64,000 bases of DNA, taken from Geosiphon pyriformis uo1. Taxonomy: Eukaryota > Fungi > Glomeromycota. The stretch is taken from NCBI GenBank assembly GCA_016748015.1, contig JAAOMT010000571.1, forward strand, positions 1,243,095 through 1,307,094, in the 5' to 3' direction. How positions within the stretch are numbered: position 1 is the first letter of the stretch; each line of letters begins with the position of its first letter. Of the stretch, positions 22,817 to 60,668 are shown one piece after another. Position numbers and translations under genes: made by a program. The notes beneath the pieces are model-generated. The model did not search any database. It was not told where the DNA came from and saw only the letters and a list, made by a program, of their open reading frames with translations.

Positions 22817-23085
22817 TGTTACTGGAGGTTTTTGGTCTCTTTTCTGTAATGTTGTTGATACTTATTTGCTGTGAATTCACGTTTTCTGGATGTGGTTGAA
22901 CCTCCAGTAACTGAATTTATCTTCAAATTATCTCCTATAATTTGAACTGCTGGGCTTATAAGTGGAATGGCCAATTCTGTGCCAGTTGCTTTATGTAGTT
23001 ACGTTGTAGTAAACGTCAACTCTTTCCCAGGAATTGCTCATCTGGAAGCTCACTAAAAATGTGTAGTTACTTTGCTGTGAAAGTC

Positions 23086-23744: not shown

Positions 23745-24388
23745 GTTTGTTATTTCCAGATAATAATCCAAAATTATTGAAGAAATTTGGTCTGAAAATT
23801 GTTGAAATTTCAGTTCTGTGAGCTTTCTAATGTATTGAATCTTCAAAAGTTGAAAAATTGGGTTTTGTAGTACGTTTTCACAGGTGTGGAATAGGTCATA
23901 AAGTTTAAGAGCAGCTCTAAGCCTGTAGTGACTGTTTGTTAATCCAGCTGTTGTCTTGAATTCGTTGTGGAGTTGTTTCTGAATAGCTTCTTTTGTGAGG
24001 TTTGCTGTTGTAAGTTCCAGTTTCTGTTCATAGAGTGTTTTTCCAATGTGAAAATATCTATAGATTGGAGGATATTCAGTGTTTTCCTCATTGAGACACA
24101 ATTGAAGTTTTTGTTGAATTGTAGCATTTGGTGAAATACTAATCGGAATGAGCCTTAGGTTTTCTCTTAAAGCAAGCTTTAAAAGTTCTGGCAGATGAAT
24201 TCCAGTATAACTTCTTGTGTTCTTTTTATATGAGTGATATTTTCATGAGTTGGGGCTAAATTTGTAACTACTTCTGTTTGGGTATAATTAATGTGGTTTC
24301 CAGTAACAGTAATAGATAATTTGGGTATTGTTTTTAAAGCTAACATTAGTTTTTGGGATAATTGTTGAATGTTTTGAGGAATAGTTAT
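23745..24388 (-). pseudogene. A2 ORF3 (start decayed to ATA, frameshift, 3' end in gap)
   Basis: Near-identical peptide to A1/A3 ORF3 (YPPIYRYFHIGKTLYE...AALKLYDLF). Confidence 0.75.
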
Positions 24389-24509
24389 TATAAGCAATTG
24401 AAAAAAAATAAAAATTATTTTTGGTGTATGGGTTTTTTTTTATGTTATTTTTGTTTTTGTTTTTGTGAGATTGTTTCTAAATTATAAGAGAATGACTAGT
24501 AAAATTAAA

Positions 24510-25895
24510 TTAAGTGTTTAGGTTGGAAGATTGTTCAATGACAACTATTGGTTCTAAGTTTCGGGGAATATCTTCGGGACTGACCAAAGGAGAATATGTA
24601 CCAATTTGTGGAATTAATGATTCAGGATTGCTTCTGGAATGATAGTGTTTCAAACGATCTCCATGTGCAACTTTTGCTAGGATTTTGTCATCAAGTCTTA
24701 GCTTGTATGATCTATTGCCTAGGACTTTATGGATAAAGAATGGTCCATCCCATTTATTTTCAAATTTTCCACTCCATTGTTTTTCAGCTTTAGTTCTGTG
24801 TAAGAGAACTTTGTTTCCAATTTTGAATTTATTGATGACTGAAGGTAATTTGTCATCATGTTGTTCTTTTTGTTGAGCTTGGGAGTGTTCAATATGGGTG
24901 GCTGCTATTCGTCGTTTTCCTTCTAATGTACTAAGTAGAGTGTAGGCTCTTCACTGAAGCGTTTTTTGGAAATTGTTTTCATCAATCAGTTGTGTTGGGT
25001 ATGTTTCCACTGTGAAACTAATTGGTAACATTGCCATCCTTCCATAAGTTAAATCAAATAGTGTGTGTTTCGTGGTGTCTTGTTTTAATGTCCTATATGC
25101 TAGTAACACTAATGGAATAAAGAGATCCCATTCTTGCTCAAAATCGGTTGAGACTTTGGCTAATGACTCACACAATGTTCTGTTAAAATGTTCCACAAGT
25201 CTGTTTGTTTGTGGATGGTAGGGCAAAGACAGAGGTCTTTTGACATTGAATTGTTCACAAATTTCTTGTATCAGGTTGTTCACAAAGTGTGTTCCCTGAT
25301 TGGATAAAAGTTCAATTGGACATCCATGTCTACAAATAATGTCTTCGTAGATAAAATTTGCTACTGATTTTGCATCTGCTCGTTGAATGGCTCTGGCTTC
25401 AGGCCATTTAGTAAAATAGTCTACAGCTACTGCAATATAACGGTTTCCTTGAGTGTTTATAGATAGTGGTCCGACTAAATCGATACCAATTCTGTCAAAA
25501 GGCTGTCCAACTTTGATTGGATTTAAAGATTCTGTAGGGCGAGTTTCTCCTCTTCTTTGACAACTATCACAAGATTTGACATATTTGTTAATGTCTTTTC
25601 TCATTCGAGGCCAAAAGTAGTATTCTAGTGTTCTTTGAGTGGTACTATTTTTTCCGAAGTGTGCTGATGAAGAATCCGAGTACATGTTGTATAAAATGGT
25701 TTCTTTTTTCTGTTCTTGTATTAATCTAAGTAGTTTGATTGGGTTTTTGAAATTTTGATGATAGATAATGTTGTTGTGTAGAAAATATTGTTTGGCTTGT
25801 TGTTGTAACCGATGTTTTTTGTCTGGAGACCAATCTGTTGGGATTGTTAATGTCTCCAAATATTGTTTGAGATTGTTGTAGTTTTTGGGGTTCAT
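24510..25895 (-). pseudogene. int: A2 integrase ORF
   Basis: CDSC, GIDLVGP, VEHFNRT, WDGPFFI; own ATG 48 nt after the RNase H stop. Confidence 0.92.
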
Positions 25896-25943
25896 TGTTT
25901 GTTGTTTTGATGCTATTAATTCAATTGAGTGTTGGTTTTGTTT

Positions 25944-28900
25944 CTAATCTTGCCTCATCCTTAAGAGACAATCAACATTGGTGTGGAGTTTTCCTGGTTT
26001 GTGGTGTATGATGTATTGGTAATTAGCTAAAAATCCTGTCCATCAGGTTTGTTTTGTGTTCAGCTGGGTGTTTTTGTTTTGAAGCCATTTAAGTCCAATA
26101 TTATTAGTGATAATATCGAATTCTTTGGGTCTGAGGTAAAAGTTGAAGTGATGTAGGGCCCAGATTACTGCTGCGGTTTCTAATTCTGTTGTAGGGTAGT
26201 TCTTTTGGCTGGCTTTAATGTTCTACTAGCATAAACAATTACTCGCTCATTTCTATTGTCATCTAACTGTAATAAGATGGCACCAAAGGCAGTATAAGAA
26301 GTGTCAATTGTTAACCAGAATGGGTTGCTGAAGTCTGGGTAGGCGAGGATTGGGGCTATTGTGAGTTTTTCCTTGAGTATCTCGAAGACATTTTGGTGTT
26401 CTTTTGTCCATTTGTATTCGACATTTTTCATAGTGAGCTGGTTGAAGGGTTTTGCAATTTCTGAGAATCCTTTGATGAATTTTCGGTAATAGAATGCTAA
26501 TCCAATAAATCCTCTTAATTCTGTGGTATTTCATGAAGTCTTGAAGTTTTTGACAGTACTGATTTTTCCAGGGTCTGGTTTAATTCCATTTTTGCTAACA
26601 ATGTGACCAAGAAAAGCTAAACTTGTTTTTCCAAAGTAGCATTTTTCAATGTTCAGTTTCAATTCTGCTTTCCATAATCATTGAAAAACTTCTCGCAGGT
26701 AAATTAAATGTAGCTCAAAAGATGGTGAATAAACATCAGTGTCATCAAGATAAACTACTACTGATTTCCAAAGGAGGTCTTTGTAAACAACATCCATGAG
26801 TCTTTGGAATGTTGCAGGTACATTGCATAATCCGAAAGGCATTACATTGAACTCGTAATTTTCTCCTTGAGTGGTGAATGCTGTTTTGGGGCAGTTTTTG
26901 GGATCCATAGCAACTTGCCAGTATCCACTCTCTAAATCTAATGTTGAAAGTATTTGGACTTTCCAAGGACATCCAACATGTCATCAATTTGGGAAAGAGG
27001 ATAAGCATCCCCAATGGTGACACTGTTGAGTTGTCAGTAATCAACACAAAATCGTATCTTTCCATTTTTCTTTTTAACTAAAACCACAGGTGAGGCCCAT
27101 GGGCTCATTGATAGTTGAATAAGCCCATTGTTAAGCATCTGTTGTACTTCTTTTCAGATAAATTGGTAACTTTCCAGAGCAACTCAGTAGGCTTGTTGTC
27201 GCCTGGGTTTGGCATCTCCTGTATAGATTTGGTGTTGAACCAAATTAGTTCTTCCTAAGTCATTGTTGTTTTCGGTGAAGATATCAGCAAATTCTGCAAT
27301 TAGTTCTTTGAGCTGGGTTTGTTGTTGTAGTTCAAGTTGTCCCATGTTGATTCGAGATAGTTTTTCCATGACAACATGGTAGTTTTCAGAGCTAGGGTTT
27401 GGATTGATTTTTGGTAATGAATGTCCAATAATTTCAGAGAAATCAGGGACTGTTTGGGGTAATTCTTGTTGAAATATATTATTGTGAATAACTCCAATTT
27501 CTAAATTATTTAACAAAATTATGAGGTAATTATTGGGTAATTATTGGGGTTGTAAAAAGTAACTCGGACTTTTTTTGTTCCTTCTGGAATATAAATGTTT
27601 GGGATCAAAATATTATGTTCCAAGCAGACTTGTTCATTGGACTCAAAAATTTGTTGTGTGGTTGTTGGCTTTGTGTAAGTGTAGATTTCCGGATGTTCTC
27701 CAAAGGATAAGATGGTAATTGGTTGTGGAAGTCTGAGAATCTGGTGGGATTCATTTTGTGTATTAAGAGCTATATTAATTGGAGCAGTAAATCGTCCAGT
27801 TGAACCAAAACCTTGGGTTCCTCTATCGCTTTTTCCTAATTGTTTTCTTTGATTGACTAGTTGCAGACCTGAAATGTTGATTAAGAGTAGGTAAATAGCT
27901 TGGGCAATTTTTTCAGCATGTTCGATCTTAAATGGTTTGTCGGTCTCATTTTGAAGCATCACTGTTATGTCTCCAGTATATCCAGCATCGATTATTCCTC
28001 CTCTGACATTGATTCCTTTGCTTGCCAGAGAGGACTAAGAGGCAATTTGAACCATTGCTCCTGGCGGGATTTCGAGTGCAATTTTGAGGTTGATTTTTGT
28101 AAGAGATTTGGGTTTAAGAACAAGAGTATCCTTGCCTGGATATCTTAGATCATATCCAGCATCAATTTTGTGTGCTTTTTCAGGTTTTATTCCTTGTCCA
28201 TTGTTGTTGAAGTATTTAAGTTGTAAGGCAGGCTGATTTTCAATAAGGTAGATGGGTGTTGTTTCAATTTCTTCTGTTTCTTCAGGTTCTCCAAATTCAA
28301 TTTTATTCTCATCATTTTCGCTGGGCAAGGGGATACTAAAAGCATAGAATTCGGGACACTATTGTTCATCACAAGACATAATGCATTCTTCACATAGCCT
28401 AATGTTTATTTGCTCTAATTGTTGAATTTGAGCTTCTTGGGTCAGGTAGGTGTGACTTGCAATTTAGTGGTAGACTTCTACTTCATCTTCGTAATCAAAT
28501 CCAGCTAATTCTATAGTGTATTCAATGTATTCTGCTTCCTTCATTTGACAAACATCTTCTTTGGTAGCTCTATTAATTAATGTCATTGCTAAGTCAAAAA
28601 TCATCTTGGCATCATGAGGGTAGTGATAAAATTTGTTGAGATGTGTATAAGAGACAGCCATAAATGTTTTGATTATTGGTTTTTCTTCTTTTGGTTCAAA
28701 TTCAAAAGCCGGAGCTTTTTTGAAGCATTTGTTGAATATACTACAAGTGGCAGGTATTCAGGCATGTTGTTCTTGGTAGGAGATTGTTAACTCTTGTGTT
28801 TCCCAATTCAGATTAGCATTGGCTTTTTGAAGCCAATCATTTCTGACGAGAGCTTGGTACTGAGGTGCGTCCATTATAAGAACTTTGACTAGAATGGTGA

Positions 28901-31142
28901 TTCCATCAAGAGTGAATGGAAAATTGTCAATTTCTCCTACTGGTGTCTTTTTCATGCCATCAGCAATAACAATTACTGTTTGAACTGGTCGGTCAACATT
29001 TCTTTTCAACTGTTGTATTAACTGGTAAGTAATAATGCTTTCAGCGGATCCATTGTCTAGGATCAAGCGAATTGGCTTTTCTTTTACTTCAGCTTCTGCA
29101 TACATTGCAGTGATGGTTTTTTGCTCATTGGCCGCTGCATTGCTAAGCAAGAATGGTGATTTATTTGCTTCAAATTCAAAAGGAAAGATATCAGAGAGAT
29201 TGGCGTTTTCAGCGATTCGAGCTGGTGGAATAGTGGTGTGGTTATGAGAAGGGTTTTGTTGTTGTTGTGCTGCAGCTCTACCTTTCAAGAGTACAATATG
29301 ATGAAAATTCTGTTCTTCCAGCATTGTTAAATAACTGGGTTGAGTGTGGTAATGGTTGGGTCTTGATTGAGTGGTATTTCGGGGAACTAATTGGTTGTTC
29401 GAACTGATTCTACTGTTGTTTACTTGGTATCAGTTTTGTGGTGTGAATTGATTTTGTGTAATCAGTTTTCGAGCAGGGACTTGATAATGTTGTGTGGGTG
29501 GTTGTTGGTATTGCTGTTGGATTGGTTGTGGGGCGGGCTGATAATAGTTATTTTGGTATTGGGGTCTTGGTGGATAGTAAACTGGTGGTAATAGTTGATA
29601 ATAAGATTGCTGTGGTGAAGAGTAACATTGATTACCCCTATTTTGTTGGTCTCGTTGCAGCTTTCTGCAATCTCTTTTCCAGTGGCCAAAGATTCCACAG
29701 TAATGACAATTTTGGGACTGGTTATTGGAAAGTGATGCAAAGTTATTTTGATTTTGTCTTTGGGGTGGTTGATATCTTTGGGGTTGTTGTTGTTGGTTGG
29801 TAAAATAGTTTTCGACCTTCTTTGTGAGTTGGTCAATTTTTTCCTCAGCTGCTGAGCTGGTTTTTCCAATTGCCAAATTTACAAGTTTTGTATGATTGGC
29901 TTCTTCTATGGCCATTTCATATCTTTTCGCATGCTGTATGGCAGAGTTTAAATCTTCTGGCGCGTGTGGGCAAATCTTTTTAATTAGTTTATATTTTAGA
30001 CCAGTGATAAATTGATCCAAGATTTGAGCATCAGAATAATAATTATTTGTCTCAAGTTGGCAAATCTGTCTGAGAAGTTTGTTGAATTTCCCAATATAAG
30101 TTATAATGGATTTGGAGGGTTCTTGTTTGATATTTCGAAAACGATTGCGAAGAGTGATAGAGGTATTATTGTCGGTGAACTGTTCAAGGAAGGCTGCTTT
30201 GAAAGCATTCCAATCATTGAATGGGACGGCAAGGTTTTCAAACCATTTTTCTGCTGTTCCTTTGAAAAAGTAGGGAATTGTTCTTAACATTCTGGCAGCG
30301 TTCCATCCATTTGCATCTCCAGCTTTAGTAACTTGGTCAGGTCATTCTTGGGGACTGGTCTCAATATCTTCTCCATTGAATTCAGGGATTTTTGCGATGT
30401 ATGTTGTCATTTTGTTTTTTTTGTTTTCACTGTCTATTGATTCTTCTTCGGTTATTTCAGAGTTGTTTTCTTCATTTGCTGCTGTCTCAGAGTGTTTACT
30501 TTGATTTTCAGCTAGAAAATCAAGGAGATTGGAACTAGTTTGAAGGGGTTCTTGTTGTTTGGTAGAACTTCTGAGTGATGTAAAATTTTCTGGTCTTGCA
30601 AATCGATTCAAGAGTGAATTAGGTGTTTGTGCTTGTGCATGCGAAGCTAGAAAAGGTGTGATAGTAAGTGGAAGTTTTGAACTGGTTCCTTGTTCAGGTG
30701 TTTGTAAATGTTTGGCAGTTGTTTTCGGTAGTGTTAGAGTATTTGGGGTGGTTCTTGAATATTGCTTTAATTTGTTTTTGCCTTTGTTACTTGTTTCTGT
30801 TTCCAATTCAAAATCAATAGTGTATTGAGACTGCACTGGATATGTTTCTTCACAGTATTTGATAATGTTAAAATTAAGTTCATGAAAGTAAGTGGCAAGT
30901 GTTTCACTATTAAGATCTTCAGTTCTCAACTGTGAATAGTGTACTAAATTATTGTAAAAGTTGCTTCTAACTTCTGAGATATTAAAATTTCCAAAAAGAT
31001 AATTGTTGATGCGGTTTTCAATGTATTGGTATACTGATTTCTTGACAACTTCAATTCCATCTGGAATGTTGAATCTTTGCTTGCAGTGGGTGTAAATTGA
31101 TTGGTAATACTCTAGAGTTGTTGCGTCTGGTGTGGTCGCCAC
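25944..31142 (-). pseudogene. gag-pol: A2 gag-pol (retains RT YLDD; Cys-rich domain interrupted by adapter artefact)
   Basis: Capsid, CHYCGIFGHWKRDC, protease, dUTPase DAGYDL...RGTQGFGSTG, VVYLDDT, RNase H; several stops and frameshifts. Confidence 0.93.
28639..28657 (+). other. Tn5/Nextera mosaic-end adapter (assembly contamination)
   Basis: Exact AGATGTGTATAAGAGACAG, located where ~440 bp present in A1/A3 is missing. Confidence 0.97.
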
Positions 31143-31187
31143 TTTGAATTTGTTTTTGCTGTGTTGTTTCCGTGGGAGAGCACCAAA

Positions 31188-32171
31188 TGTTACCAGAGGT
31201 TTTTGATCTCTTTTCTGTAATGTTGTTGATACTTATTTGCTGTGAATTCACGTTTTCTGGATGTGGTTGAACCTCCAGTAACTGAATTTATCTTTAAATT
31301 ATCTCCTATAATTTGAACTGCTGGGCTTATAAGTGGAATGGCCAATTCCATGCCAGTTGCTTTATGTAGTTACGTTGTAGTAAATGTCAACTCTTTCCCA
31401 AGAATTGCTCGTCTGGAAGCTCACTAAAAATGTGTAGTTATTTTGCTGTGAAAGTTAACTCTTCTACAGGAATCTCGTCTGTAGGCTACCCTAATGATTG
31501 TAATAAGAAAAGAAAGAAAAATAAAAGAAGTGTAAAAGAAATAGGATCTTATCAAGGGAAACGTTTTTCTATCCAGGCCTGGAGTCACTAACAGTTTTAC
31601 TGAAATTGGTAGCTAATCAATTTCGAAATGTTAGTTGGGTTTTGGGGATTTTCCAAGTACAATAATTAAAGAATTTGGTTTTTCAAATTATTTGATATTT
31701 ATTTCTTTTTGTGTATATAGGAACGGTTTTAAGAGATAAATCTAAAGTAAGATACATTTTCTCGAAGAGAGAAGCTTTTCTTTTATACAACTTGTTGTAA
31801 CACTATTCTATGAACTTGAACTTTGCTATTTTCTACAATTTCACTGAACTAAAGATACATTTCGGCAAACTACAAGTTATTTTGGCGAACTATTAATTAA
31901 TTTGGGTGAACTATTCATTATTTCAGCGAATTTCTACAAATTTTGGTGAACTTCTGAATGTTACATAGTTCGGGGTATTGTATGATTGATCATCGCAATT
32001 AGGTTACATTTGTGTTGTGTACAATTTGAGTTATTAATTAAATGATAATTTCGGACATTTTTTTTGCTAATGTAATAAGTGATTATTTGGAACAATAATA
32101 TATGCTAATTAATGATAGGAATTATAAGATAATTTCATGCTAAATAATATCTCTAATTTTGTCTGGTAACA
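31188..32171 (-). repeat. 5' LTR of A2
   Basis: TGTTACCAGA...TCTGGTAACA; followed in sense orientation by TT + PBS. Confidence 0.95.
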
Positions 32172-32356
32172 TCATTGATTCGATTTTTGATGTATTGAAA
32201 AAGTGTTTTCTTGAAAGCTATGATTCCATCACGTATTTCAAATCATTGTTTGCAGTGTGTGTAAATCGATTGATAGTACTCTAAGGTTGTGATGTCTGAG
32301 GCAGTCGCCACTTTGAATTTGTTGTTGCTGTGTTTTTTCTATGGAAGAGCACCAAA

Positions 32357-34201: not shown

Positions 34202-35182
34202 TGTTACTAGACAAAATTAGAGATATTATTTAGCATAAAATTATCTTATAATTCCTATCATTAATTAGTATATATTATCGTTCCAAATGATCACTTATTA
34301 CATTAGCAAAAATGTCCGAAATTATTATTTAATTAATAACTCAAATTGTACACAACACAAATGTAACCTAATTGCGATGATCAATCATGCAATACCCCGA
34401 ACTATGTAACATTCAGAAGTTCGCCGAAATTTGTAGAAATTTGCCGAAATAATGGATAGTTTACTGAAATATCTAATAGTTCACCAAAATAACTTGTAGT
34501 TCGCCAAAATGTATCTTTAGTTCAGCGAAATTGTAGAAAATAGCAAAGTTCAAGTTCATAGAATAGTGTTACAACAAGTTGTATAAAAGAAAAGCTTCTC
34601 TCTTCGAGAAAAATGTATCTTACCTTAGATTTATCACTTAGAACCATTCCTATACACACAAAAGAAATAAATATCAAATAATTTGAAAAACCAAATTCTT
34701 TAATTATTATACTTGGAAAATTCCCGAAACCCAACTAATGTTTTGAAATTGATTAGCTACCAATTTCAATAAACTGTTAGTGACTCCAGGCCTGGATAGA
34801 AAGCGTTTCTCTTGATAAAAATTCTATTTCTTTTACACTTCTTTTATTTTTCTTTTCTTTTCTTATTACAATCATTAGGGTAGCCTACAGACGAGATTCT
34901 TGTAGAAGAGTTGACTTTCACAGCAAAGTAACTATACATTTTTAGTGAGCTTCCAGACAAGCAATTCCTGGAAAAGAGTTGACATTTACTACAATGTAAC
35001 TACATAAAGCAACTGGCATGGAATTGGCCATTCCACTCATAAGCCCAGCAAGTTCAAATTATAGGAGATAATTTGAAGATAAATTCAGTTACTGGAGGTT
35101 CAACCACATCCAGAAAACGTGAATTCACAGCAAATAAGTATCAACAACATTACAGAAAATAGACCAAAAACCTCCAGTAACA
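34202..35182 (+). repeat. 5' LTR of A3
   Basis: TGTTAC...GTAACA; matches 43090-44070. Confidence 0.95.
34420..34588 (+). promoter_or_regulatory. U3 array of six TTCGCCGAAA-type motifs at 20-21-bp period, followed by a TATA box (TATAAAA 34582-34588)
   Basis: Motifs at ~34420, 34440, 34460, 34480, 34500 and 34521; present in every family A LTR. Promoter function is inferred. Confidence 0.55.
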
Positions 35183-35184
35183 TT

Positions 35185-35202
35185 TGGTGCTCTCCCATGG
35201 AA
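35185..35202 (+). promoter_or_regulatory. Primer-binding site of A3
   Basis: TGGTGCTCTCCCATGGAA, 2 nt after the LTR; complementary to a tRNA 3' end ...GGGAGAGCACCA. Confidence 0.8.
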
Positions 35203-35227
35203 ATAACACAGCAAAAACAAATTCAAA

Positions 35228-38200
35228 GTGGCGACCACACCAGACGCAACAACTCTAGAGTATTACCAATCAATTTACACCCACTGCAAACAAAGATTCA
35301 ACATTCCAGATGGAATTGAAGTTGTCAAGAAATCAGTATACCAATACATTAAAAACTGCATCAACAATTATTTTTTTGGAAATTATAATATCTCAGAAGT
35401 TAGAAACAACTTTTACAATAATTTAGTACACTATTCACAGTTGGGAACTGAAGACCTTAATAGTGAAACACTTGCCACTTACTTTCACGAACTTAATTTT
35501 AATATTATCAAATACTGTGAAGAAACATATCCAGTGCAGTCTCAATACACTATTGATTTTGAATCGGAAACAGAAACAAGCAACAAAGGCAAAAACAAAT
35601 TAAAACAATATTCAAGAACCACCCCAAATACTCCAACACTACTGAAAACAACTGCCAAACATTTACAAACACCTGAACAAAGAACCAGTTCAAAACTTTC
35701 ACTTACTATTACACTTTTTCCAGCTTCACTTGCACAAGCACAAACACCTAATTCACTCTTGAATCGATTTGCAAGACCAGAAGATTTTACATCACTCAGA
35801 AGTTCCACCAAACAACAAGAACCTCTTCAAACTAGTTCCAATCTTCTTGATTTTCTAGCTGAAAATCAAAGTGAACACTCTGAAACAGCAGCAAACGAAG
35901 AAAACAACTCTGAAATAACCAAAGAAGAATTAATAAACAGTGAAAACGAAGAAAACGAAATGACAACATACATCGCAAAAATCCCTGAATTCAATGGAGA
36001 AGATATTGAGACCAGTCCCCAAAAATGGCTCGACCAAGTTACTAAAGCTGGAGATGCAAATGGATGAAATGCTGTCAGAATGTTAAGAACAATTCTCTAC
36101 TTTCTCAAGGGAACAGCAGGAGAATGGTTTGAAAACCTTGCCGTCCCATTCAATGATTGGAATGCTTTCAAAGCAGCCTTCCTTGAACAGTTCACTGACA
36201 ATAATACCTCCATTACTCTTCATAATTGTTTTCGAAATATCAAACAAGAACCCTCCAAATCCGTTATGACTTATATTAGGAAATTCAACAAACTTCTCAG
36301 ACGGATTCGCCAACTCGAGACAAATAATTATTATTCTGATGCTCAAATCTTAGATCAATTTATCACTGGTCTAAAAGATAAACTAATTAAAAAGATTCAC
36401 CTACATGCACAAGAAGATTTAAACTCTGCCATACAGCATGCGAAAAGATATGAAATGGCCATAGAAGAAGCCAATCATACAAAACTTGTAAATTTGGCAA
36501 TTGGAGAACCCAGCTCAGCAGCTGAGGAAAAAATTGACCAACTCACAAAGAAGGTCGAAAACTATTTTACCAACCAACAACAACAACCCCAAAGATATCA
36601 ACCACCCCAAAGACAAAATCAAAATAACTTTGCACTACTTTCCAATAACCAGCCCCAGAATTGCCATTACTGTGGAATCTCTGGCCACTGGAAAAGAGAT
36701 TGCAGAAAGCTGCAACGAGACCAACAAAATAGGGGTAATCAACATTACTCTCAACCACAGCAATCTTATTATCAACCATTACCACCAGCTTACTATCCAC
36801 CAAGACCCCAATACCAAAATAACTATTATCAGTTCACCCTACAACCAATCCAACAGCAATACCAACAACCATCCACACAACATTATCAAGTATCTGCTCA
36901 AAGACTGATTACACAAAATTAATTCACACCACAAAACTGATACCAAGTAAACAACAGTAGAATCAGTTCGAACAACCAATTGGTTCCCCAAAATACCACT
37001 CAATCAAGACCCAACCATTACCATACTCAACCCAGTTATTTAACAATGCTGGAAGAACAGAATTTTCATCATATTGTACTCTCGGAAGGTAGAGCTGCAG
37101 CACAACAACAACAAAACCCTTCTCATAACCACACCACTATTCCACCAGCCCGAATCGCTGAAAACGCCAATCTCTCTGATATCTTTCCTTTTGAATTTGA
37201 AGCAAATAAATCACCATTCTTGCTTAGCAATGCAGTGGCCAATGAGCAAAAAGCCATCACTGCAATGTATGCAGAAGCTGAAGTAAAAGGAAAGCCAATT
37301 CGCTTGATTCTAGACAGTGGATCTGCTGGAAGCATTATTACTTACCAGTTAATACAACAGTTGAAAAGAAATGTTGACCAACCAGTTCAAACAGTAATTG
37401 TCACTGCCGATGGCATGAAAAAGACACCAGTAGGAGAAATTGACAATTTTCCATTCACTCTTGATGGAATCACCATTCCAGTCAAAGTTCTTGTAATGGA
37501 CGCACCTCAGTACCAAGCTCTCGTCAGAAATGATTGGCTTCAAAAAGCCAATGCTAATTTGAATTGGGAAACACAAGAGTTAACAATCTCCTACCAAGGA
37601 CAACACGCCCGGGTATCTGCCATTTGTGGTACATTCAACAAACACTCTGAAAAAGCCCCGGCTTTTGAATTTGAACCAAAAGAAGAAAAACCAATAATCA
37701 AAACATTCATGGCTCTTGGATCAACGTCCAACTGGGCCGATGAAACTGAACAAGAACACTTTACCCCACACACTAAACCCAAAACCTCTGGATGGAATAT
37801 ACCTTACTCAAAACCCGAATCAAAAAAACAACGCTCCTATATTCCCCTTAAATGTAAGGACTGCCACAAGAAACTATCATCAATGGAAGCCTGCATTTCA
37901 CCTGAAAAAGAATATGAGAATCATACTTGTTATTACTGCAAGGCTTGCCACAGAGAGTGATGGGGCCATCTAATAAAAAAGAGCGGAAAATGGGACAACA
38001 CCCCTTGTTTGACTTGTGGAGATATGCTACCAGAAGAATGCAATTGGATTGATGTAGCAATGAGAAAAGGTGTTTGTGATCAGACCTGCCAATATGTTTT
38101 ATCAATTTCAGAAAAAGTAAAAAGAGGAACACCCTTTAATGCAGCATACAATAATACTCTCAACAAACTTTATCACTACCCTCATGATGCCGAGATGATT

Positions 38201-40846
38201 TTCGACTTAGCAATGGCATTAATTAATGGAGCTACCAAAGAAGATGTTCATCAAATGAAGGAAGCAAAATACATTGAATACACTATGGAATTAGCTGGAT
38301 TTGATTACGAAGATGAAGTAGAAGTCTACCACCAAATTGCAAGTCACACCTATCCAACCCAAGAAGCTCAAATTCAACAATTAGAGCAAATAAACATTAG
38401 GCTATGTGAAGAATGCATTATGCCTTGCAATGAACAGTGGTGTCCTGAATGCTATGCTCTTAGTATCCCCTTGTCCAGCGAGAATAATGAGAATGAAATT
38501 GAATTTAGAGAACCTGAAGAAACAGAAGAAATTGAAACAACACCCATCTACCTTATTGAAAATCAGCCTGCCTTACAACTTAAATACTTCAACAACAACG
38601 GACAAGGAATAAAACCCAAAAAAGCACATGAAATTGATGCTGAATATGACCTAAGATATCCAGGCAAGGATACTCTTGTTCTTAAACCCAAATCTCCCAC
38701 AAAAATCAATCTCAAAATTGCACTCGAAATCCCGCCAGGAGCAATGGTTCAAATTGCCTCTTGGTCCTCTCTGGCAAGCAAAGGAATCAATGTCAAAGGA
38801 GGAATAATCGATGCTGGATATACTGGAGACATAACAGTGATGCTTCAAAATGAGACCGACAAACTATTTAAGATCAAACATGCTGAAAAAATTGCCCAAG
38901 CTATTTACCTACCCTTAATCAACATTTCGGGTTTGCAACTAGTCAATCAAAGAGAACAATTAGGAAAAAGCGATAGAGGAACCCAAGGTTTTGGTTCAAC
39001 TGGACAATTCACAGTTCCAGTTAATATAGCTCTTAACACACAGAACGAATCCCACCAGATTCTCAGACTTCCACAACCAATTACCATCTCACTCTTTGGA
39101 GAACATCCGAAAATCTACACTTGCACAAAGCCAACAACCACACAACAAATTTTTGAGTCCAATGAACAAGTCTGCTTGGAACATAATATTTTGATCCCAA
39201 ACATTTATATTCCAGAAGGAACAAAGAAAGTCCGAGTTACTTTTTACAACCCTAATAATTACCCCATAATTTTGTTAAATAATTTAGAAATTGGAGTTAT
39301 TCACAATAATATATTTCAACAAGAATTACCCCAAACAGTCTCCGATTTCCCTGAAATTATTGAACATTCATTACCAAAAATCAACTCAAACCCTAGCTCT
39401 GAAAACTACCATGTTGTCATGGAAAAACTATTTCGAATCAACATAGGACAACTTGAACTATAACAACAAACCCAGCTCAAAGAACTAATTGCAGAATTTG
39501 CTGATATCTTCGCCGAAAACAACAATGACTTAGGAAGAACTAATTTGGTTCAACACCAAATCTATACAGGAGATGCCAAACCCAGGTGACAACAAGCCTA
39601 CCGAATTGCTCCGGAAAGTCACCAATTTATCCGAGAAGAAGTACAACGGATGTTTAACAATGGGCTTATTCAACTATCAATGAGCCCATGGGCCTCACCT
39701 GTGGTTCTAGTTAAAAAGAAAAATGGAAAGATACGATTTTGTGTTGATTACTGACAACTCAACAGTATCACCATTGGGGATGCTTACCCTCTTCCCCAAA
39801 TTGATGACATGTTGGATGCCCTTGGAAAGTCCAAATACTTTTCAACATTAGATTTAGAGAGTGGATACTGGCAAGTTGCTATGGATCCCAAAGACTGCCC
39901 CAAAACAGCATTCACCACTCAAGGAGAAAATTACGAGTTCAATGTAATGCCTTTCGGATTATGCAATGCACCCGCAACATTCCAAAAACTCATGGATGTT
40001 GTTTACAAAGGCCTCCTTTGGAAATCAGTAGTAGTTTATCTTGATAACACTGATGTTTATTCACCATCTTTCGAGCTACATTTAATTTACCTGCGAGAAG
40101 TTTTTCAATGATTACGGAAAGCAGAATTGAAACTGAACATTGAAAAACGCTACTTTGGAAAGACAAGTTTAGCTTTTCTTGGTCACATTGTTAGCAAAGA
40201 TGGAATTAAACCAGACCCCGGAAAAATCAGTACTGTCAAAAACTTTAAGACTTCATGAAATACCACAGAATTAAGAGGATTTATTGGATTAGCATTCTAT
40301 TACCGAAAATTCATCAAAGGATTCTCAGAAATTGCAAAACCCCTCAACCAGCTCACTACTAAAAATATCGAATACAAATAGACAGAAGAACACCAAAATG
40401 CCTTCGAAATACTTAAGGAAAAACTCACAACAGCCCCAATCCTCGCCTACCCAGACTTCAGCAACCAATTCCGGTTAGCAACTGACGCTTCTTATACTGC
40501 TTTTGGTGCCATCTTATCACAGTTAGATGACAATGGAAATGAGCGAATAATTGCTTATGCTAGTAGAACATTAAAGCCAGCCAAAAAAAACTACCCCGCA
40601 ACAGAATTAGAAACCACAGCAGTAATCTGGGCCCTACATCACTTCAACCTTTACCTCAGACCCAAAGAATTCGATATTATCACTGATAATATTGGACTTA
40701 AATGGCTTCAAAACAAAAACACCCAGCTGAACACAAAACAAACTCGATGAACAGGATTTTTAGCTAATTACCGATACATTGTACACCACAAACCAGGAAA
40801 ACTCCACACCAACGTTGATTGTCTTTCAAGGATGAGGCAAGATTAG
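35228..40846 (+). pseudogene. gag-pol: A3 gag-pol single-frame polyprotein: N-terminal extension, capsid (from ATG 35960), CCHC knuckle (36662-36703), aspartic protease (DSG at 37313), Cys-rich domain, dUTPase, RT, RNase H
   Basis: ORF pieces at 35228, 36080, 36980, 38009 and 39809 share one frame; interrupting stops are TGG/CAA/CGA-derived; ends SRMRQD-TAG. Confidence 0.94.
38580..39004 (+). CDS. dut: Trimeric-type dUTPase domain within the polyprotein
   Basis: All five motifs: DA(G)YDL, AS(R)SSL, GIIDAGYTG, KIAQ, RGTQGFGSTG. Confidence 0.93.
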
Positions 40847-40894
40847 AAACAAAACCAACACCCATTTGAATTAACAGCATCAAAACAACAAACA

Positions 40895-42280
40895 ATGGAC
40901 CCCGAAAACTACAACAATCTCAAACAATATTTGAAGACATTAACAATCCCAACAGATTGGTCCTCAGACGAAAAACATCGGTTACAACAACAAGCCAATC
41001 AATATTTTTTACACAACAACATTATCTATCATCGAAATTTCAAAAACCCAACCAAACCACTTAGATTAATACAAGAACAGAAAAAAGAGACCATTTTATA
41101 CAACATGCACTTGGATCCTTTATCAGCACACTTCGAAAAAGATAGCACCACCCAAAGAACACTAGAATACTACTTTTGGCCTCGAATGAGAAAAGACATT
41201 CACAAATATGTCGAATCTTGTGATAGTTGTTAAAGAAGAGGAGGAACTCGTCCTACAGAACCTTTAAATCCAATCAAAGTTGGACAGCCTTTTGACAGAG
41301 TTGGTATCGATTTAGTCGGACCACTATCTATTACCACTCAAGGAAACCGTTATATTGCAGTAGCTGTAGACTATCTTACTAAATGGCCTAAAGCCAGAGC
41401 CATTCAACAAGCAGATGCAAAATCAGTAGCAAATTTTATCTACGAAGACATCATTTGTAGACATGGATGTCCAATTGAACTTTTATCCGATCAGGGAACA
41501 CACTTTGTGAACAACCTGATACAAGAAATTTGTGAACAATTCAATGTCAAAAGACCTCTGTCTTTGCCCTATCATCCACAAACAAACAGACTTGTGGAAC
41601 GTTTTAACAGAACATTGTGTGAGTCATTAGCCAAAGTCTCAACCAATTTTGAGCAAGAATGGGATCTCTTTATTCCATCAGTGTTACTAGCATATAAGAC
41701 ATTAAAACAAGACACCACGAAACACACACTATTTGATTTAACTTATGGAAGGATGGCAACGTTACCAATTAGTTTCACAGTAGAAACATACCCAACACAA
41801 CTGATTGATGAAAACAATTTCCAAGAAATGCTTCAGCGAAGAGCCTACACTCTATTTAGTACATTGGAAGAAAAACGATGAATAGCAGCCACCCATATTG
41901 AACACTCCCAAGCTCAACAAAAAGAATGGCATGATGACAAATTGTGTTCAGTCATCAATAAATTCAAAATTGGAAACAAAGTTCTCTTACACAGAACTAA
42001 AGCTGAAAAACAATGAAGTGGAAAATTTGAAAATAAATGAGATAGACCATTCTTTATTCATGAAGTCCTAGGCAATAGATCATACAAGCTAAGACTTGAT
42101 GACAAAATCCTAGCAAAAGTTGCACATGGAGATTGTTTGAAACACTATTATTTCAGAAACAATCCTGAACTATTAATTTCACAAATTGGTACACATTCCC
42201 ATTTGGTCAGTCCCGAAGATATTCCCCGAAACTTAGAACCAATAGTTGTCATTGAACAACCTTTCAATCTGAACACTTAA
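40895..42280 (+). pseudogene. int: A3 integrase ORF (461 codons, decay stops)
   Basis: HHCC, GIDLVGP, SDQGTHF, VERFNRT; GPF-type C-terminus; no chromodomain seen. Confidence 0.93.
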
Positions 42281-42401
42281 TTTAATTTTACTAGTCATTC
42301 TCTTATAATTTAGAAACAATCTCACTAAAACAAAAACAAAAATAACATAAAAAAAAATCCATACACCAAAAATAATTTTTATTTTTTTTCAATTGCTTAT
42401 A

Positions 42402-43121
42402 ATGACTATTCCTCAAAACATTCAACAATTATCCCAAAAACTAATGTTAGCTTTAAAAACAATACCCAAATTATCTATTACTGTTACTGGAAACCACATT
42501 AATTATACTCAAACAGAAGTAGTTACAAATTTAGCCCCAAACTCATGAAAATATCACTCATATAAAAAGAACACAAGAAGTTATACTGGAATTCATCTGC
42601 CAGAACTTTTAAAGCTTGCTTTAAGAGAAAACCTAAGGCTCATTCCGATTAGTATTTCACCAAATGCTACAATTCAACAAAAACTTCAACTGTGTCTCAA
42701 TGAAGAAAACACTGAATATCCTTCAATCTATAGATATTTTCACATTGGAAAAACACTCTATGAACAGAAACTGGAACTTACAACAGCAAACCTTACAAAA
42801 GAAGCTATTCAAAAACAACTCCACAATGAATTCAAGACAACAGCTGGATCAACAAACAGTCACTACAGGCTTAAAACTGCCCTTAGACTTTATAACCTAT
42901 TTCACACCTGTGAACACGTACTACAAAACCCAATTTTTCAACCTTTGAAGATTCAATACATTGGAAAGCTCACAGAACTGAAATTTTAACAATTTTTAGA
43001 CCAAATTTCTTCAATAATTTTGGATTATTATCTGGAAATAACAAACAGTACTTGGACTTTGACGGAGCTCAGTCTTGAGGAGGAGATTATGTTACCAGAC
43101 AAAATTAGAGATATTATTTAG
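42402..43121 (+). pseudogene. A3 ORF3, ~239-aa unknown protein overlapping the PPT and 3' LTR
   Basis: ATG 42402 to TAG 43119-43121 in one frame with two decay stops; conserved in A1, A2 and distantly in B. Confidence 0.78.
43077..43086 (+). promoter_or_regulatory. Polypurine tract of A3
   Basis: GAGGAGGAGA, 3 nt before the 3' LTR. Confidence 0.8.
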
Positions 43122-44070
43122 CATAAAATTATCTTATAATTCCTATTATTAATTAGTATATATTATCATTCCAAATGATCACTTATTACATTAGCAAAAA
43201 TGTCCGAAATTATTATTTAATTAATAACTCAAATTGTACACAACACAAATGTAACCTAATTGCAATGATCAATCATGTAATACCCCGAACTATATAACAT
43301 TCAGAAGTTCACTGAAATTTGTAGAAATTTGCCAAAATAATGGATAGTTCACTGAAATATCTAATAGTTTGCCAAAATAACTTGTAGTTCACTGAAATGT
43401 ATTTTTAGTTCAGCGAAATTGTAGAAAATAGCAAAGTTCAAGTTCATAGAATAGTGTTACAACAAGTTGTATAAAAGAAGAGCTTCTCTCTTTGAGAAAA
43501 ATGTATCTTACCTTAGATTTATCACTTAGAACCATTCCTATATACACAAAAGAAATAAATATCAAATAATTCGAAAAACCAAATTCTTTAATTATTATAC
43601 TTGGAAAATTCCCGAAACCCAACTAATGTTTTGAAATTGATTAGCTACCAATTTCAATAAACTGTTAGTGACTCCAGGCCTGAATAAAAAGCGTTTCCCT
43701 TGATAAAAATTCTATTTCTTTTACATTTCTTTTATTTTTCTTTTCTTTTCTTATTACAATCATTAGGGTAGCCTACAGATGAGATTCCTGTAGAAGAGTT
43801 AACTTTCACAGCAAAGTAACTACACATTTTTAGTGAGCTTCCAGATGAGCAATTCCTGGGAAAGAGTTGACATTTACTACAATGTAACTACATAAAGCAA
43901 CTGGCATGGAATTGGCCATTCCACTCATAAGCCCAGCAAGTTCAAATTATAGGAGATAATTTGAAGATAAATTCAGTTACTGGAGATTCAACCACATCCA
44001 GAAAACGTGAATTCACAGCAAATAAGTATCAACAACATTACAGAAAATAGACCAAAAACCTCTAGTAACA
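43090..44070 (+). repeat. 3' LTR of A3
   Basis: Direct repeat of 34202-35182. Confidence 0.95.
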
Positions 44071-51409: not shown

Positions 51410-51909
51410 TGTTACTCATAGAAATATAGGAAATATATTAGCATAATTATTAGCCAATCAGAAGTAAGCATAGTAAATATGGAATTCCAGGATTCCTTTC
51501 AGGAATTGCAGGATTCCAGAAATTTCAGAATTCCCTGACAAGGAATTGCAGAATTGCAGAATTCCAGGATTTCTCTCAAAGAAATCGCAGAATTCCAGGA
51601 ATTCTAAGATTCCTGTCATGAAAAATCAAGGAATTGAGGAATCCCAATTATGTATATATAGTAGTAGTATTAGAAACAGAAAAGACAGAATCAATACCAC
51701 AGAATCCTTAGCCAAGAAACCAATCATCAAATAAATAATTATTTCATATCTCAATTCACTATTCACTATCAACACTTTATGTTGATAATAATTGATACTT
51801 AACCATGCTGGAACAATAGCTCTTGATCATGGCTATTGATAAGATACTAATGTACCGAATTGCCTTGGCTTATTTTCTTTATTTTCTTTAATTTTATTTT
51901 CTTTTTTTT

Positions 51910-51954
<45 letters not shown>

Positions 51955-52335
51955 CTTTGATTTTGTTGTTGTATACTAATTGAGTAAAAAAATTAAGCAC
52001 TAAGTTATTGACATCAAGGATAGCCTGGTAAAAGACCCAGAAATAAGGATAGAATTATATATATTAACAGATAGCTTACCAGAAGGGCACAACTGCCAGA
52101 ATAAATCTGGCTGCCAAGCTGAGAAAGAAATTGGGCATAATTGCGACTCCAGGAAAACTACTATCATCACCACTGAATCTCTGTCCATTATACAAAGAAC
52201 TCCACAACAAAATCTTCAGATCAACCAAAACTTTCAGATACCATACCTTCCGCACATCATCCATAAAAGTAGCTTTTGAGCACCAAGTTATGAGTTTGTT
52301 ATTCAATACAACAACAGAAATAATCACCTGTAACA
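51410..52335 (+). repeat. 5' LTR of family B element
   Basis: Direct repeat of 60669-61547; GAATT(C/G)CAG repeats and a long T-tract. Confidence 0.95.
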
Positions 52336-52397
52336 TTTGGTGCTTTCTGTGAGGTATAATCCTACAGAGAACCAGCACTGACAACACCAAACCAAAA

Positions 52398-53858
52398 GTG
52401 GCAGAATCAGAAATTATAGGAGCAAACCATTTAGGATTCGCAAAATCCTTATTTCAACATTATTGTCAATACTTAGCCTTCAATTTCTACGTCAATGAAA
52501 AGATTTCCTTTTTATTAGAAACATCAGTGAATACTGAATCAGCAAGAGAAACTTTCTATAAGAAATTAATTCAAAACACCAACTTACTAACAAACCATAA
52601 TTTTGCATCCATCATCACTGAAATCAACAAAGAAATTGAATACCACACTCAACAAAGATATCCAATTACATACGCTAGTAAAAGCAAGGGAAAATTACAA
52701 ATATCAACAGTAACACTTCGAAAAATACAGCCACCTGCTTGGAAGAAAAACAGAGTTGAATCCCCAAGTAACTCATCATACCACTATACATTTGGAAACG
52801 CCATCAACATATCATCAACCGATGCGTTTCCATCAACTGTAACATCAGTATTTGGACGATTCCCATTCCAAAGTAGACAAAAAAAAACAGAATTGTTAGG
52901 ACCATATGGGAAATACTTTGAGAGATTTAATTTACAATCATCAACCTTATCAGGACTTCAATCACCACCGCCTCCACCAGATTTCGGAATTTTTGATCCA
53001 TGGGAAACAGCAGAATCAGAAAAAGAGGAAGAAGAATCAGAGGATCAAGAATTCACTTACCAGCACCCAATCACTAAAAACCCAGAAGTTGAAACCCTGA
53101 ATATTCAAACTCAGCAACAGTTAGAAAATCCGGAAATCGAAACTCCGAATATTCGAACGCTGCCAAATTAAAAAAATCAAAACCCCGAATTAATTAATCA
53201 GCAAAACTTACCTCCAGTAATTATTATCGATCAACCACCGATTAATCCCATAGCCGAACCCATACAGCAGTCACTTCAGCTATCACCCCAACAGCCAGGA
53301 CAATAACAACTGTTTCAACAGTCACCACAACCACCTAACTTAGATCCAATGGCCTACGCACCAATCGCAAAACTTGACAACTTTACGGGCGAAAAGAATG
53401 ACACTCAAATATAGCTGAATGATGTAGAAAAGGCCATTGCAGCCAACGGATGAAATGACGCTCAAGCAATGCAAGCCATTTCCTACTGTCTCAAAGATAC
53501 CGCCAATTTATGGTACCAGAGCTTGATTAATAAACCACAAGATTTTAATGCCTTCAAAGTGGAATTTCTAAGATACTTCAGCAATAATAACAGCATCAAT
53601 CGCCTAGTCAATGCATTTACCACCATGAAACAAGGAGAAACTGAAGCAGTCACCACTTACCTGGGACGCTTCCATCAAAACCTATGCCAAATTCAAGCAA
53701 TTGACGCCAACTATTTCACAGCACCACAGATACTCAATCAGTTTATCTGTGGCCTGCGCAGCAGCATCTTACAACATGTATGTCCATTGCATCCAGGCAC
53801 CCTTCAAGATGCAGTCACACGTGCCAGAGATTTTGAATCTGCTGAGTCAGAGACTAAC
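52398..53858 (+). pseudogene. gag: Family B gag, 5' part (GTG-started extension; capsid from ATG 53349)
   Basis: MAYAPIAKLDNFTG...QILNQFICGLR...ARDFE, homologous to the family A capsid. Confidence 0.88.
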
Positions 53859-56800
53859 AGTATTGTTCTGGTTTTATTATATTTTTGGGTTGAAATGTTC
53901 TTAGATTTGTCTTATTCGCGATAAACCATTAGCATTTCCATTGTCTTTTCCCTTTTTGTAATGTATAGTATAATTGTATAATGTGAGTGCCATTTTCTAT
54001 CTTGACTGTCTTCCATCTCCAAATTCTTGTTTTTGGGGTGATGTTAATCCCTTGTGATCTGTGTATACTTCAAACTTCTGGCTCAAGTATTCTTTCTATT
54101 TCATAACAGCCCAGTATATTGCTAAGTGTTCTTGTTCCAGTGTTCTATAGTTCTTTTCGGCTGGTGTTAAATCTCTGCTGGCATATGCTACTGGATGTTC
54201 TCTGCTGTCCGGTCCTCTCTGAAATAATACTGCTCCCAATGCTTGGCTGGATGCATTGGTGGTGATGATGAATGGTTTGCTGTAATCTGAATAGATCAGT
54301 ACTGGAGCTTGGATGAGCTTTTTCCTCAGAATATTAAAAGCTTCTTGTTGACTTTCTGTCCATTCATATTTCACATTTTTGTTTTGCAGTTGATTGAGTG
54401 GCTGCACTATCTTGGAAAAATTCTTGATAAAATAACGATAGTAGTTGACAAATCCCAAGAATGATTTCAGTTCTGTTATATTGGTTGGCATTGGAAAGTT
54501 TTTTACTATCTCTATTTTCTTTGGATCCGTTTTGATGCTGTTTTTGCTGACTATGTGTTCCAAAAATTTGAGTTCTGTCTTGCCAAAGAAGCACTTTGTC
54601 ACATTTAACTTTAGTCCTGCTTTTTTTAGTCTTTTGAACACTTGTTAAAGATAATGAAGATGATCATTAAACATTTTTGAGAATACATTGGTGTTGTTCA
54701 AGTATACAACTACTGATTTCCACAATAAGCCAGTATAAACAATTTCTATTAGCCATTGGAAAGTTGCTGGGACATTGGTTAAGCCAAATAGCATTACTTT
54801 AAATTCGAAATTCCCTTCTCTAATAGTAAATGCCGTCTTCTCTTTGTCAGCTGGATTCATGGCTACTTGTCAGTAACCACTGTCCAAATTTAATGTAGAG
54901 AACCATTTGTTCCCACAGAAAGCATCAAATAATTCCTGTATTTGTGGAGTTGGATAACTGTCTTCATGAGTTACACTATTGAGTTTCCTGTAGTCTACAC
55001 AAAACTGGATTTTTCCATTTTTCTTATGGACAAGTACCACTGGGGATGACCATGGACTCATTGATGGTTGAATTAGCCCGTTGTTAAGCATTCTGTTTAT
55101 CTCTTGATAAATAATCTCGTGGCTGGCTGGTGGCATTCTGTATGCTCTTTGTTTGATTGGCATTGCATTTCCAGTCTTGATTTGATGCTGGATGATGTCA
55201 GTTCGGCCAAACTCATTTTTGCTGGCAAAGATGTCATTGAAATTGTTGAGTAACATCTTGAGCTGCATATATTGGAGTGGATCTAAGTTTCCCATGTTCA
55301 TTTGTTCCAATTGTTCTGGTTGGAGCAAATAACATTTGTCTTGTCCATAGATTGTTTGTGATGTGATGTCAACATATTCACAAAATTGTGGAAAGTCTGG
55401 AATGGGGTTTGGTGGTTGGTCTTCTATTTCTGTGGTTAAATATCCAATGGTGGTTCCTTTTGGTATGTTGATGATATTGCCAGTGTTGTTGTAGATAAGA
55501 ATTTTTATGTTGCTATAGCTTTTGGCTGGTATGTGGAGATTGATCAACCCAATCTCTCCTGATTTACAAAGGGTTGCTTTCACTTCAAAAATCTGTTCTT
55601 GCTCTTTTTCCTTCCTTTTTATTGCTAACATGTACTGGCTATATGGTGGAATGGAAATAGCTTGACCAGTTGAGATAATTTCTCCTTGGCCAACAATTTC
55701 TTCTTCTGCCATATTAACTGGTACATCTGTTCTATCCGTTGATCCAAATCCTTGTATTCTTCTCGCTGTTATTCCTAATTTCTCCTTCTTTCCCACTGAT
55801 ACTAACTGAGCTACTCTAATCAGAGGCAGGAATATTGCCTGTGCTATCTTTTCATTGGGCTCTATTATATAGGCTTTTTCTGAGTCATTTTGTAGCATGG
55901 CGATAATATTTCCTACATATCTCACATCAATTATTCCTCTTCTTATATTGATCCCTCTTTTCGCTAAACTACTCCTAGATGCTAATTGAACCATTGTTGT
56001 TGCCAGAATCTCTAATGCTATTTTCAGATCAATGCAGGTGCATGAATGTGGTTCCAATTTGATGGCATTTTTTCCTGGATACCTCAGATCAAACCCTGCA
56101 TTTGTATTATGTGCACGTTCTGGCATAATACCTTCCCCATTGTCACTATACCATTTCAACTCTTGTTCCTTGGAGAGATCTGGTAGTGCAATGTATTGTT
56201 CATAGTTTAAATTGGGTTTTGAATCTGAGTCTGAATTGTTTTTGTTGTCATTGCCATTTTAAACAGAGCTGGAACCAGTGTTTTTGTTGTCATCATCGAA
56301 GTCTGGATCATGATTAATCAGTGATTCTGATTCCAATACACAGCTGCTGATTGGTTCTTCTTCTTTAGAGATCAAGTAGATCATGCATGGTGGTGGATTG
56401 TAAATGAGGTCACAATCGTCACAATATTCAAAGTCATTGGGAATTAAACACTGGCAACACAGTTTTGTATTTAACTGTGCTAGCCGTTGTTCTTGCTCTT
56501 CTCTAGTGGGTGCCAAGTTTTGGTAGTGTTCATGGAACTCTTCTGGTTCTAGAAAATTTATAACTGGCTCTGCGTCCCAGTCAAGCTCAATGGGTTCTGG
56601 TGGGTTGTTTTTAATTGTCCAGATTTCTTCTGGGAACATGCCTTCAATTTTGGCAGTTGCCATTCTCCAAATTTTGTCATCGTCATGTGGGCAACTGTCT
56701 AATCGTCGCACTGCTCTTTGCTAAGCAGCTTCAATTCCCCTTTTTTAATCCAGTCATTGATCAGAATTGTGTATTGACACTCTACATTGCACATTCTTCC

Positions 56801-58601: not shown

Positions 58602-58621
58602 AATGGAAAATACAACAAAAA

Positions 58622-59971: not shown

Positions 59972-60025
59972 TCCATCAAAAGAATATATAAAGACATAGT
60001 AGATGTGACAGGAAATATCAGAAAA

Positions 60026-60655: not shown

Positions 60656-60668
60656 AAGAAGGGAATAA

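Follow-up and report, generated by a model that had tools for sequence, protein, structure and literature searches.

In retroviruses and long terminal repeat (LTR) retrotransposons, integrase (IN) normally reaches the particle as part of Gag-Pol. Described here is a complete LTR element whose integrase is encoded apart from Pol: copy A3 of family A, positions 34202-44070 on the plus strand of a 64-kb window (the whole 64,000-nt stretch analysed) of contig JAAOMT010000571.1 of Geosiphon pyriformis uo1. The element is classed as a derived, not a canonical, form of Ty3/Gypsy (Metaviridae), of non-chromovirus type. It has direct TG...CA LTRs, a short target-site duplication (TSD), a primer-binding site (PBS), a polypurine tract (PPT) and, by Pfam, the domain order gag, protease (PR), reverse transcriptase (RT), RNase H (RH), integrase, with a CCHC knuckle after the capsid. 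Canonical Gypsy integrase sits within the pol open reading frame (ORF), according to the cited passage of PMC3248453, as the original prediction on this DNA had held. In the present lineage, by contrast, integrase lies outside the pol ORF, a GUG start is predicted, and a third frame, ORF3, belongs to a new family.

Gag and pol share one ORF, as described for DGLT-A of Dictyostelium in the cited part of PMC5911963. Fungal Gypsy elements with a dUTPase between PR and RT are already published (PMC2864245, in the part cited), a correction to the further statement that typical Gypsy elements lack such modules. The same PR-dUTPase-RT position is found in PosPlaTy3-5, in elements of Phanerochaete and Tuber and in bdelloid clades; a separate integrase is not mentioned in the passages cited from PMC2864245, PMC5408684 and PMC6431247. 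Fungal dUTPase elements are called chromoviruses in a passage of PMC2774666, whereas the A3 integrase has no chromodomain. The domain was likewise absent from the Pfam lists of the 120 listed integrase homologues (best 120 of 1284), and chromovirus identity was ruled out by its absence from the integrase C-terminus. In Tat elements a further RNase H is encoded by an ORF outside pol (cited parts of PMC10508981 and PMC13468544), which raises the same question of enzyme delivery; the moved enzyme there is an accessory RNase H, here the sole integrase. A Gmr1-like element, with integrase upstream of RT, was ruled out by the position of integrase downstream of RNase H. Foamy viruses resemble the present lineage in that a replication enzyme lacks the Gag tether, Pol being made apart from Gag; they differ in that foamy Pol, which uses spliced RNA, still contains integrase. 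Caulimoviruses likewise have several ORFs on one polycistronic RNA, read by reinitiation, but no integrase. The DNA transposons Ginger and GingerRoot reportedly carry a stand-alone Gypsy-type integrase. Integrase is its own protein in both cases; here it is part of an LTR element, downstream of RT-RH, and a Ginger-type transposon was ruled out by its place between RNase H and the 3' LTR. Keyword passages of the literature yielded no account of a Gypsy lineage whose integrase has an ORF to itself; Repbase, GyDB, REXdb, the Geosiphon genome paper and transposable-element library supplements may already contain such elements.

The layout gag-pol, separate integrase, ORF3 is, to judge from sequence comparison, close to certain to be a real, lineage-wide variant of Ty3/Gypsy. 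Relatives were soil-metagenome loci, the best 80 of 573 matches. Where the RNase H end and the integrase start were both visible, the two were never fused (0/41 loci). Integrase lay at frame offset 0, 1 or 2 from RNase H in 9, 17 and 15 of these loci, all three stop codons were used, and an ATG stood at the homologous integrase start in 68 of 69 loci. Gaps between the two frames were at most 10 nt in 6 loci, 11-40 nt in 3, 41-100 nt in 18 and more than 100 nt in 14; some of these 14 are enlarged by decay stops, and real gaps of 160-550 nt occur in some relatives. In the intact relatives L027, L039 and L074, a single open gag-pol ORF is closed by a stop and followed by an integrase ORF and ORF3. 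At protein level, an integrase search gave 1284 proteins, and 98 of the best 120 start at the first position of the query. That search is unable to show fused forms; a search for long RT-RH proteins is able to. By hand count, 48 of 57 long RT-RH proteins of at least 47% identity are without an integrase domain. The remaining nine are three Rhizophagus clarus models that skip the RNase H end, five proteins that fall with animal and chromodomain elements in trees, and one true fusion, P0197. In Rhizophagus irregularis, gene models for gag-pol and for a 419-aa integrase are adjacent, to judge from consecutive accessions on same-length contigs: CAB4415439 (1528 aa) is paired with CAB4415438 (419 aa), and CAB4415525 (1577 aa) with CAB4415526 (419 aa). 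In each pair the RNase H motif closes the long protein. Named hosts of the split lineage are R. irregularis, R. clarus and Entrophospora sp., with ORF3 also in Glomus cerebriforme; viral contigs gave only 4 distant integrase matches. The lineage is accordingly described, from these comparisons, as an old multi-ORF lineage with separate integrase and conserved ORF3, spread across Glomeromycotina. An old, conserved multi-ORF lineage had been proposed, and this was borne out more widely than the window alone could show. The alternative named with that proposal, an ordinary single gag-pol-IN ORF, was not seen in the 41 loci, and the intact relatives are split.

Copy A3 is dead, with 15 premature stops between 35960 and 42277; it differs from A2 by 397 transitions and 27 transversions. 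An ordinary gag-pol-IN element, whose RNase H stop arose by decay or is overcome through readthrough or programmed frameshift, would fit copies so full of transition stops, and integrase is in frame with RNase H in A3 and A2. Among codons reachable by transition, 3 of 210 are stops in all three family A copies. Two of the three have the look of decay, lying inside RT, where the family B protein reads on. From the window alone, a stop common to three copies is suggestive and by itself no proof. The RNase H stop is nevertheless read as lineage-wide and not as decay, because family B stops at the same codon, the A1 spacer carries a frame-changing indel (net +1) and none of the 41 relatives is fused. 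In family B this codon lies four residues past the LSR motif, and the position of the integrase ATG is also the same. With every frame offset and all three stop codons in use among relatives, the ordinary gag-pol-IN element is scarcely credible, and readthrough or frameshift across the RNase H stop is effectively refuted by unfused relatives, mixed offsets and intact split copies.

Split elements group with the fused protein P0197 on a single branch, both in RT trees (SH-aLRT 98-99) and in the integrase tree (SH-aLRT 100); these supports are from quick trees. RT trees were built from 55 and then 39 of 141 rows, with P0152, P0123 and P0146 (long-branch or odd fused) and others dropped. Two long fused rows were placed among split rows when 55 rows were used. 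A single clade was compatible in the approximately unbiased test (p 0.665), which does not by itself show one. The nearest named RT matches are Gypsy-type polyproteins, and the split elements are one branch among them in trees that hold no reference-clade set. In P0197 / P0241, a close relative, RT-RH and the same integrase class stand in one ORF; this is either an ancestral state or a re-fusion.

In the preferred reading, with prospects slightly better than even, this is a decayed Ty3/Gypsy-derived Glomeromycotina lineage with three ORFs, whose integrase would be made from its own AUG on the long RNA and not cut from Pol. Initiation on the long RNA, slightly favoured in its own right, would occur by reinitiation or internal ribosome entry. 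The cis signals for this start would differ by sublineage: stop-start overlap, an unstructured A/C-rich leader (in the window) or a 37-nt folded RNA. Free integrase would join the particle or the cDNA without a Gag-Pol tether. The soluble helical ORF3 protein would be the likeliest element-encoded helper, as a putative adaptor or nucleic-acid binder. Common readthrough or frameshift is held to be excluded because a separate integrase ORF is present in 41/41 loci, in all three frame offsets; nearby splicing is disfavoured; and the comparisons suggest that an independent start is controlled at the level of RNA. By the criterion of a termination upstream ribosome-binding site (TURBS), gaps of at most 10 nt occur in 6/41 relatives, as against 48 nt in family A and 62 nt in family B (counted across the inversion described below).

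Of 80 relatives, 26 carry the 37-nt RNA element (28 at E <0.05), for example L027:5193-5229; it lies 0-33 nt upstream of the integrase ATG. Its two stems are 98.9% paired, and 6 of 9 pairs show two-sided changes, in a structure derived from the same sequences. In 500 shuffles none reached the paired percentage or the covariation score and 8 reached the pair count; slid controls were far lower. The exact pattern was absent from the viral contigs and prokaryote genomes searched. The integrase of one carrier, L023, is 98.6% identical to a protein of R. irregularis. Because stem pairs covary, the element points to selection on RNA and not on a DNA promoter. This bears on a rival in which integrase (and ORF3) would come from shorter 3' RNAs, made from an internal promoter in RNase H or the spacer, or remaining after cleavage or 5'-3' decay that is halted at the folded element. 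Free spacer length and frame, the long real gaps of some relatives, T-rich tracts upstream of the motif, and a structure with paired ends so close before the ATG all suit it, and Ty1 reportedly makes an internal transcript. Covariation, however, is the mark of an RNA-level and not a promoter signal, the stop-start overlaps of some sublineages fit coupling on one RNA, and the folded element has no Rfam match (14 loci scanned). Shorter 3' RNAs are possible, with the balance tilted against them. Other sublineages' spacers gave no common fold. A candidate recurring motif, short and unstructured, was seen in the spacers of one sublineage (L001, L005, L009, L014 and L017), and loosely at window positions 40847-40894 in family A.

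Splicing was weighed in two forms: an upstream donor joined to an acceptor before the integrase AUG, or removal of the stop with restoration of a Pol-IN fusion. According to the cited part of PMC5408684, spliced messages are the typical source of third-ORF products in LTR elements. The RNase H end and the integrase start are skipped in R. clarus models P0223, P0226 and P0238, and R. irregularis model P0303 joins the integrase core to ORF3. These entries, however, are gene predictions that delete the conserved RNase H end motif. YAG within 40 nt of the integrase ATG is not enriched (46/65 against 44.4 shuffled), no AG is fixed before the ATG, and a spliced fusion has no need of a fixed initiator Met. 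In the 37-nt element a compensatory change deletes the sole 3'-end AG in 2 of 21 sequences. Splicing is considered improbable.

A GUG start is predicted for the Geosiphon families. The in-frame GTG stands in the same context at all four of the window's 5' ends that show it (those of A3, A2 and B and of a further 5' stub), and in A3 a single frame runs from it through the capsid ATG, CCHC knuckle, PR, Cys-rich region, dUTPase and RT to RNase H. Relatives have an ATG at the corresponding place, 23-97 nt past the PBS start, the PBS being seen in 9 of 13 loci examined. The A3 extension holds 1 ATG in 732 nt, compared with 14-24 per kb in other coding parts; out-of-frame ATGs number 1 against 6.7 expected (P 0.007, codon shuffle). 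The B extension (951 nt) holds 4 ATGs against 11.6 expected (P 0.008). Such depletion before the capsid ATG is the pattern predicted by leaky scanning. Weak GUG initiation would give a long Gag-Pol, and scanning past the AUG-poor extension to the capsid AUG a short one, so that two Gag-Pol isoforms are inferred. The non-AUG start and ATG depletion lend support to the earlier suggestion that the lineage has its own translational-control scheme. Protein similarity between the A and B extensions is weak (E 0.03). A His + CxxC motif opens the Gag extensions of L017, L027, L074, L004, L039, L077 and L025 and was not seen in the Geosiphon extension.

A homologous ORF follows integrase in 29 of 46 loci with at least 500 nt downstream, by a profile built partly from the same loci. 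The ORF3 family comprises 562 clusters at 50% identity. Window ORF3s of A and B align with the L003 ORF3 and with each other, and this group joins the wider family at an hhalign probability of 93%. Directly, the wider-family profile matches window ORF3s weakly (E 0.001-0.03 for A copies, 6 for B), and their membership rests on L003 and the profile-profile comparison. Stop and start are at most 11 nt apart in 8 of 28 IN-ORF3 junctions (hand count); in A3 the spacer is 121 nt. The AlphaFold model of L074 ORF3 is all-helical (pLDDT 95.9). None of 27 ORF3 sequences has a transmembrane-like segment (19-residue hydropathy window >1.6). With this and the all-helical model, an env-like membrane glycoprotein of errantivirus type was ruled out, and on this point the original prediction's retrovirus-like accessory architecture was not supported as stated. 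Searches of ORF3 against Pfam gave no significant match, single weak ones reaching E 0.013 at best and DUF1016_N matching 1 of 27 at E 0.023. PDB sequences gave nothing. Foldseek with the model gave no match at E 0.001 in PDB and BFVD; the VIA best had Z 4.8, rmsd 3.3 and 69 aligned. A missing fold match does not prove the modelled fold new. It is doubtful, and offered tentatively, that this is an undescribed, mycorrhiza-wide LTR retrotransposon branch that has abandoned integrase in Pol and works as a polycistronic RNA, in which a new class of compact RNA element drives initiation at the integrase AUG and ORF3, with a new helical fold, either promotes this reinitiation or brings free integrase to the particle or the cDNA. 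In some elements other proteins were observed: a NUDIX hydrolase in the ORF3 slot (L031:1945-2886) or inside pol (P0234), and a helix-turn-helix protein in the ORF3 slot of L017:6546-6941. The NUDIX cases would represent repeated capture of nucleotide-pool enzymes besides dUTPase.

Several observations weigh against the layout and the mechanism as read here. Stand-alone integrases served as seeds of the scan for relatives. In the RT tree made with a mixture model, P0197 comes out as sister to the split elements (support 77); in the integrase tree it is nested among them, and because of this nesting the split state may reverse, or may have arisen repeatedly. Of the 46 loci, 17 lack ORF3, which on that account is not taken to be required in every sublineage. 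The 37-nt element has no match in the window. Gaps exceed 40 nt in 32 of 41 relatives, as in both window families, and such gaps are long for classical stop-restart. The three R. clarus gene models join RNase H to integrase across the stop.

The original prediction had treated accessory modules as a defining feature; this was not sustained, the dUTPase being published and patchy and the pseudo-dUTPase occurring also in fused elements. By Pfam, dUTPase is present in families A and B. By hand count none of 22 related loci that span PR-RT carries it, and 3 of the best 120 long RT matches do. As a lineage hallmark it is ruled out by these counts, and it is best regarded as an optional acquired module, patchy in the lineage. 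It probably limits uracil in cDNA, a role proposed in the literature. The pseudo-dUTPase aligned to dUTPases by hhalign at 57% (E 1e-4) with 9 sequences and at 2.7% with 4; its profile also matches elements with fused integrase. The model of the dUTPase and pseudo-dUTPase region had pLDDT 34. The Cys-rich (CxxC) region is likely zinc-binding; relatives have different Cys modules in this slot. Homologues of the CxxC-dUTPase region are all from Geosiphon pyriformis in the best 120 of 409, with identity up to 90%. A single in-frame stop between PR and RT was seen in L011 (2498-2500), L012, L015, L058, L062, L073, L079 and L080; in one or two sublineages it may mark a readthrough site or another split. 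An extension of 220-344 aa after RNase H was seen in L027:4339-5163, L039:3497-4438, L074:3084-4112 and L056:2417-3271, mostly in the folded-RNA sublineage; the four scanned were without Pfam match.

Features of A3 and of the other copies in the window, with coordinates in the window and the basis of each assignment
Feature	Position	Strand	Basis or remark
5' LTR (TG...CA), copy A3	34202..35182	+	LTR-LTR identity 96.6%; 4-bp TSD, 1 mismatch
Primer-binding site	35185..35200	+	Sequence comparison
N-terminal Gag extension, predicted GTG start (35228), 244 aa	35228..35959	+	GTG context common to A3, A2, stub, B
Capsid (ATG 35960) and CCHC knuckle	35960..36709	+	Pfam Retrotrans_gag 2e-14, Ty3_capsid 2e-7, zf-CCHC
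Aspartic protease	37250..37600	+	Pfam Asp_protease_2 2e-10; 61% identity to B
Cys-rich (CxxC) region	37850..38480	+	45% identity to B over 92 aa, E 2e-25
dUTPase	38570..39010	+	Pfam PF00692 4e-21; 53% identity to B
dUTPase-like (pseudo) domain, weak assignment	39011..39330	+	hhalign to dUTPases
Reverse transcriptase and RNase H	39464..40843	+	Pfam RVT_1, RT_RNaseH, RT_RNaseH_2; 55% identity to B
Stop TAG (40844-46) and 48-nt non-coding A/C-rich spacer	40844..40894	+	TAG closes RNase H in 3/3 A copies; same codon in B
Integrase as an ORF of its own, 461 aa (H2C2, rve core, SH3)	40895..42280	+	Pfam; ATG 40895 to TAA 42280
ORF3, ATG 42402, through PPT into 3' LTR	42402..43121	+	30% identity to L003, E 1e-14; two decay stops
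Polypurine tract	43077..43086	+	Sequence comparison
3' LTR	43090..44070	+	LTR-LTR identity
Family A copy A1, 5' part missing	14114..22832	-	87.7% identity to A3
Family A copy A2, N gap 23086-23744	22817..32173	-	About 95% identity to A3
Family B element	51410..61547	+	GTG 52398, capsid ATG 53349, integrase 58622-59971, ORF3 ATG 60026; LTRs 88.6% identical; 4-bp TSD
Inverted middle of family B: gag end, PR, Cys region, dUTPase, RT, RH, RH stop (53903-53901)	about 53859..58601	-	Sequence comparison

Copy A1 is without PBS and GTG region. No tRNA gene is present in the window. Proteins of B and A are 53-61% identical across PR, dUTPase, RT-RH and integrase. The layout predicted to be common to both families was confirmed in stop codon, integrase ATG position and domain order, with the reservation that B shows it only when its inverted middle is read flipped. 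One inversion breakpoint is within gag and the other within the RH-IN spacer; the inversion is either a real rearrangement or an assembly artefact. Of the claim that the two families have unrelated LTRs and different PBSs, most stood: the LTRs have only short T-rich patches in common and the PBSs diverge, but only after a common first 7 nt. Extra family A LTRs lie at 32357-33352, 45464-46448 and 49305-50297 (79-95% identity), one of them with a PBS and gag stub at 32175-32357. Open frames of other decayed elements, into which the LTR elements inserted, lie at 62451-63967, 50256-51437, 43988-45465 and 47193-49051 (minus strand). The frame at 62747-63967 resembles the RNase H end of what we take to be a non-LTR element.

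LTR elements cover 41% of the Geosiphon genome in the cited part of PMC11952901. Elements of the kind described here may be misclassified, in such genomes, by tools that look for RT-RH-IN within a single ORF. The split layout explains many stand-alone 'integrase core domain' gene models in annotations of arbuscular mycorrhizal fungi. Added by the present analysis are a protein family of 562 clusters and a covarying RNA motif without database match. A large, apparently successful lineage with separate integrase needs other means of dosing integrase and of bringing it to the cDNA. Polycistronic translation in a fungus, and integrase delivery, become testable in intact copies of Rhizophagus irregularis.

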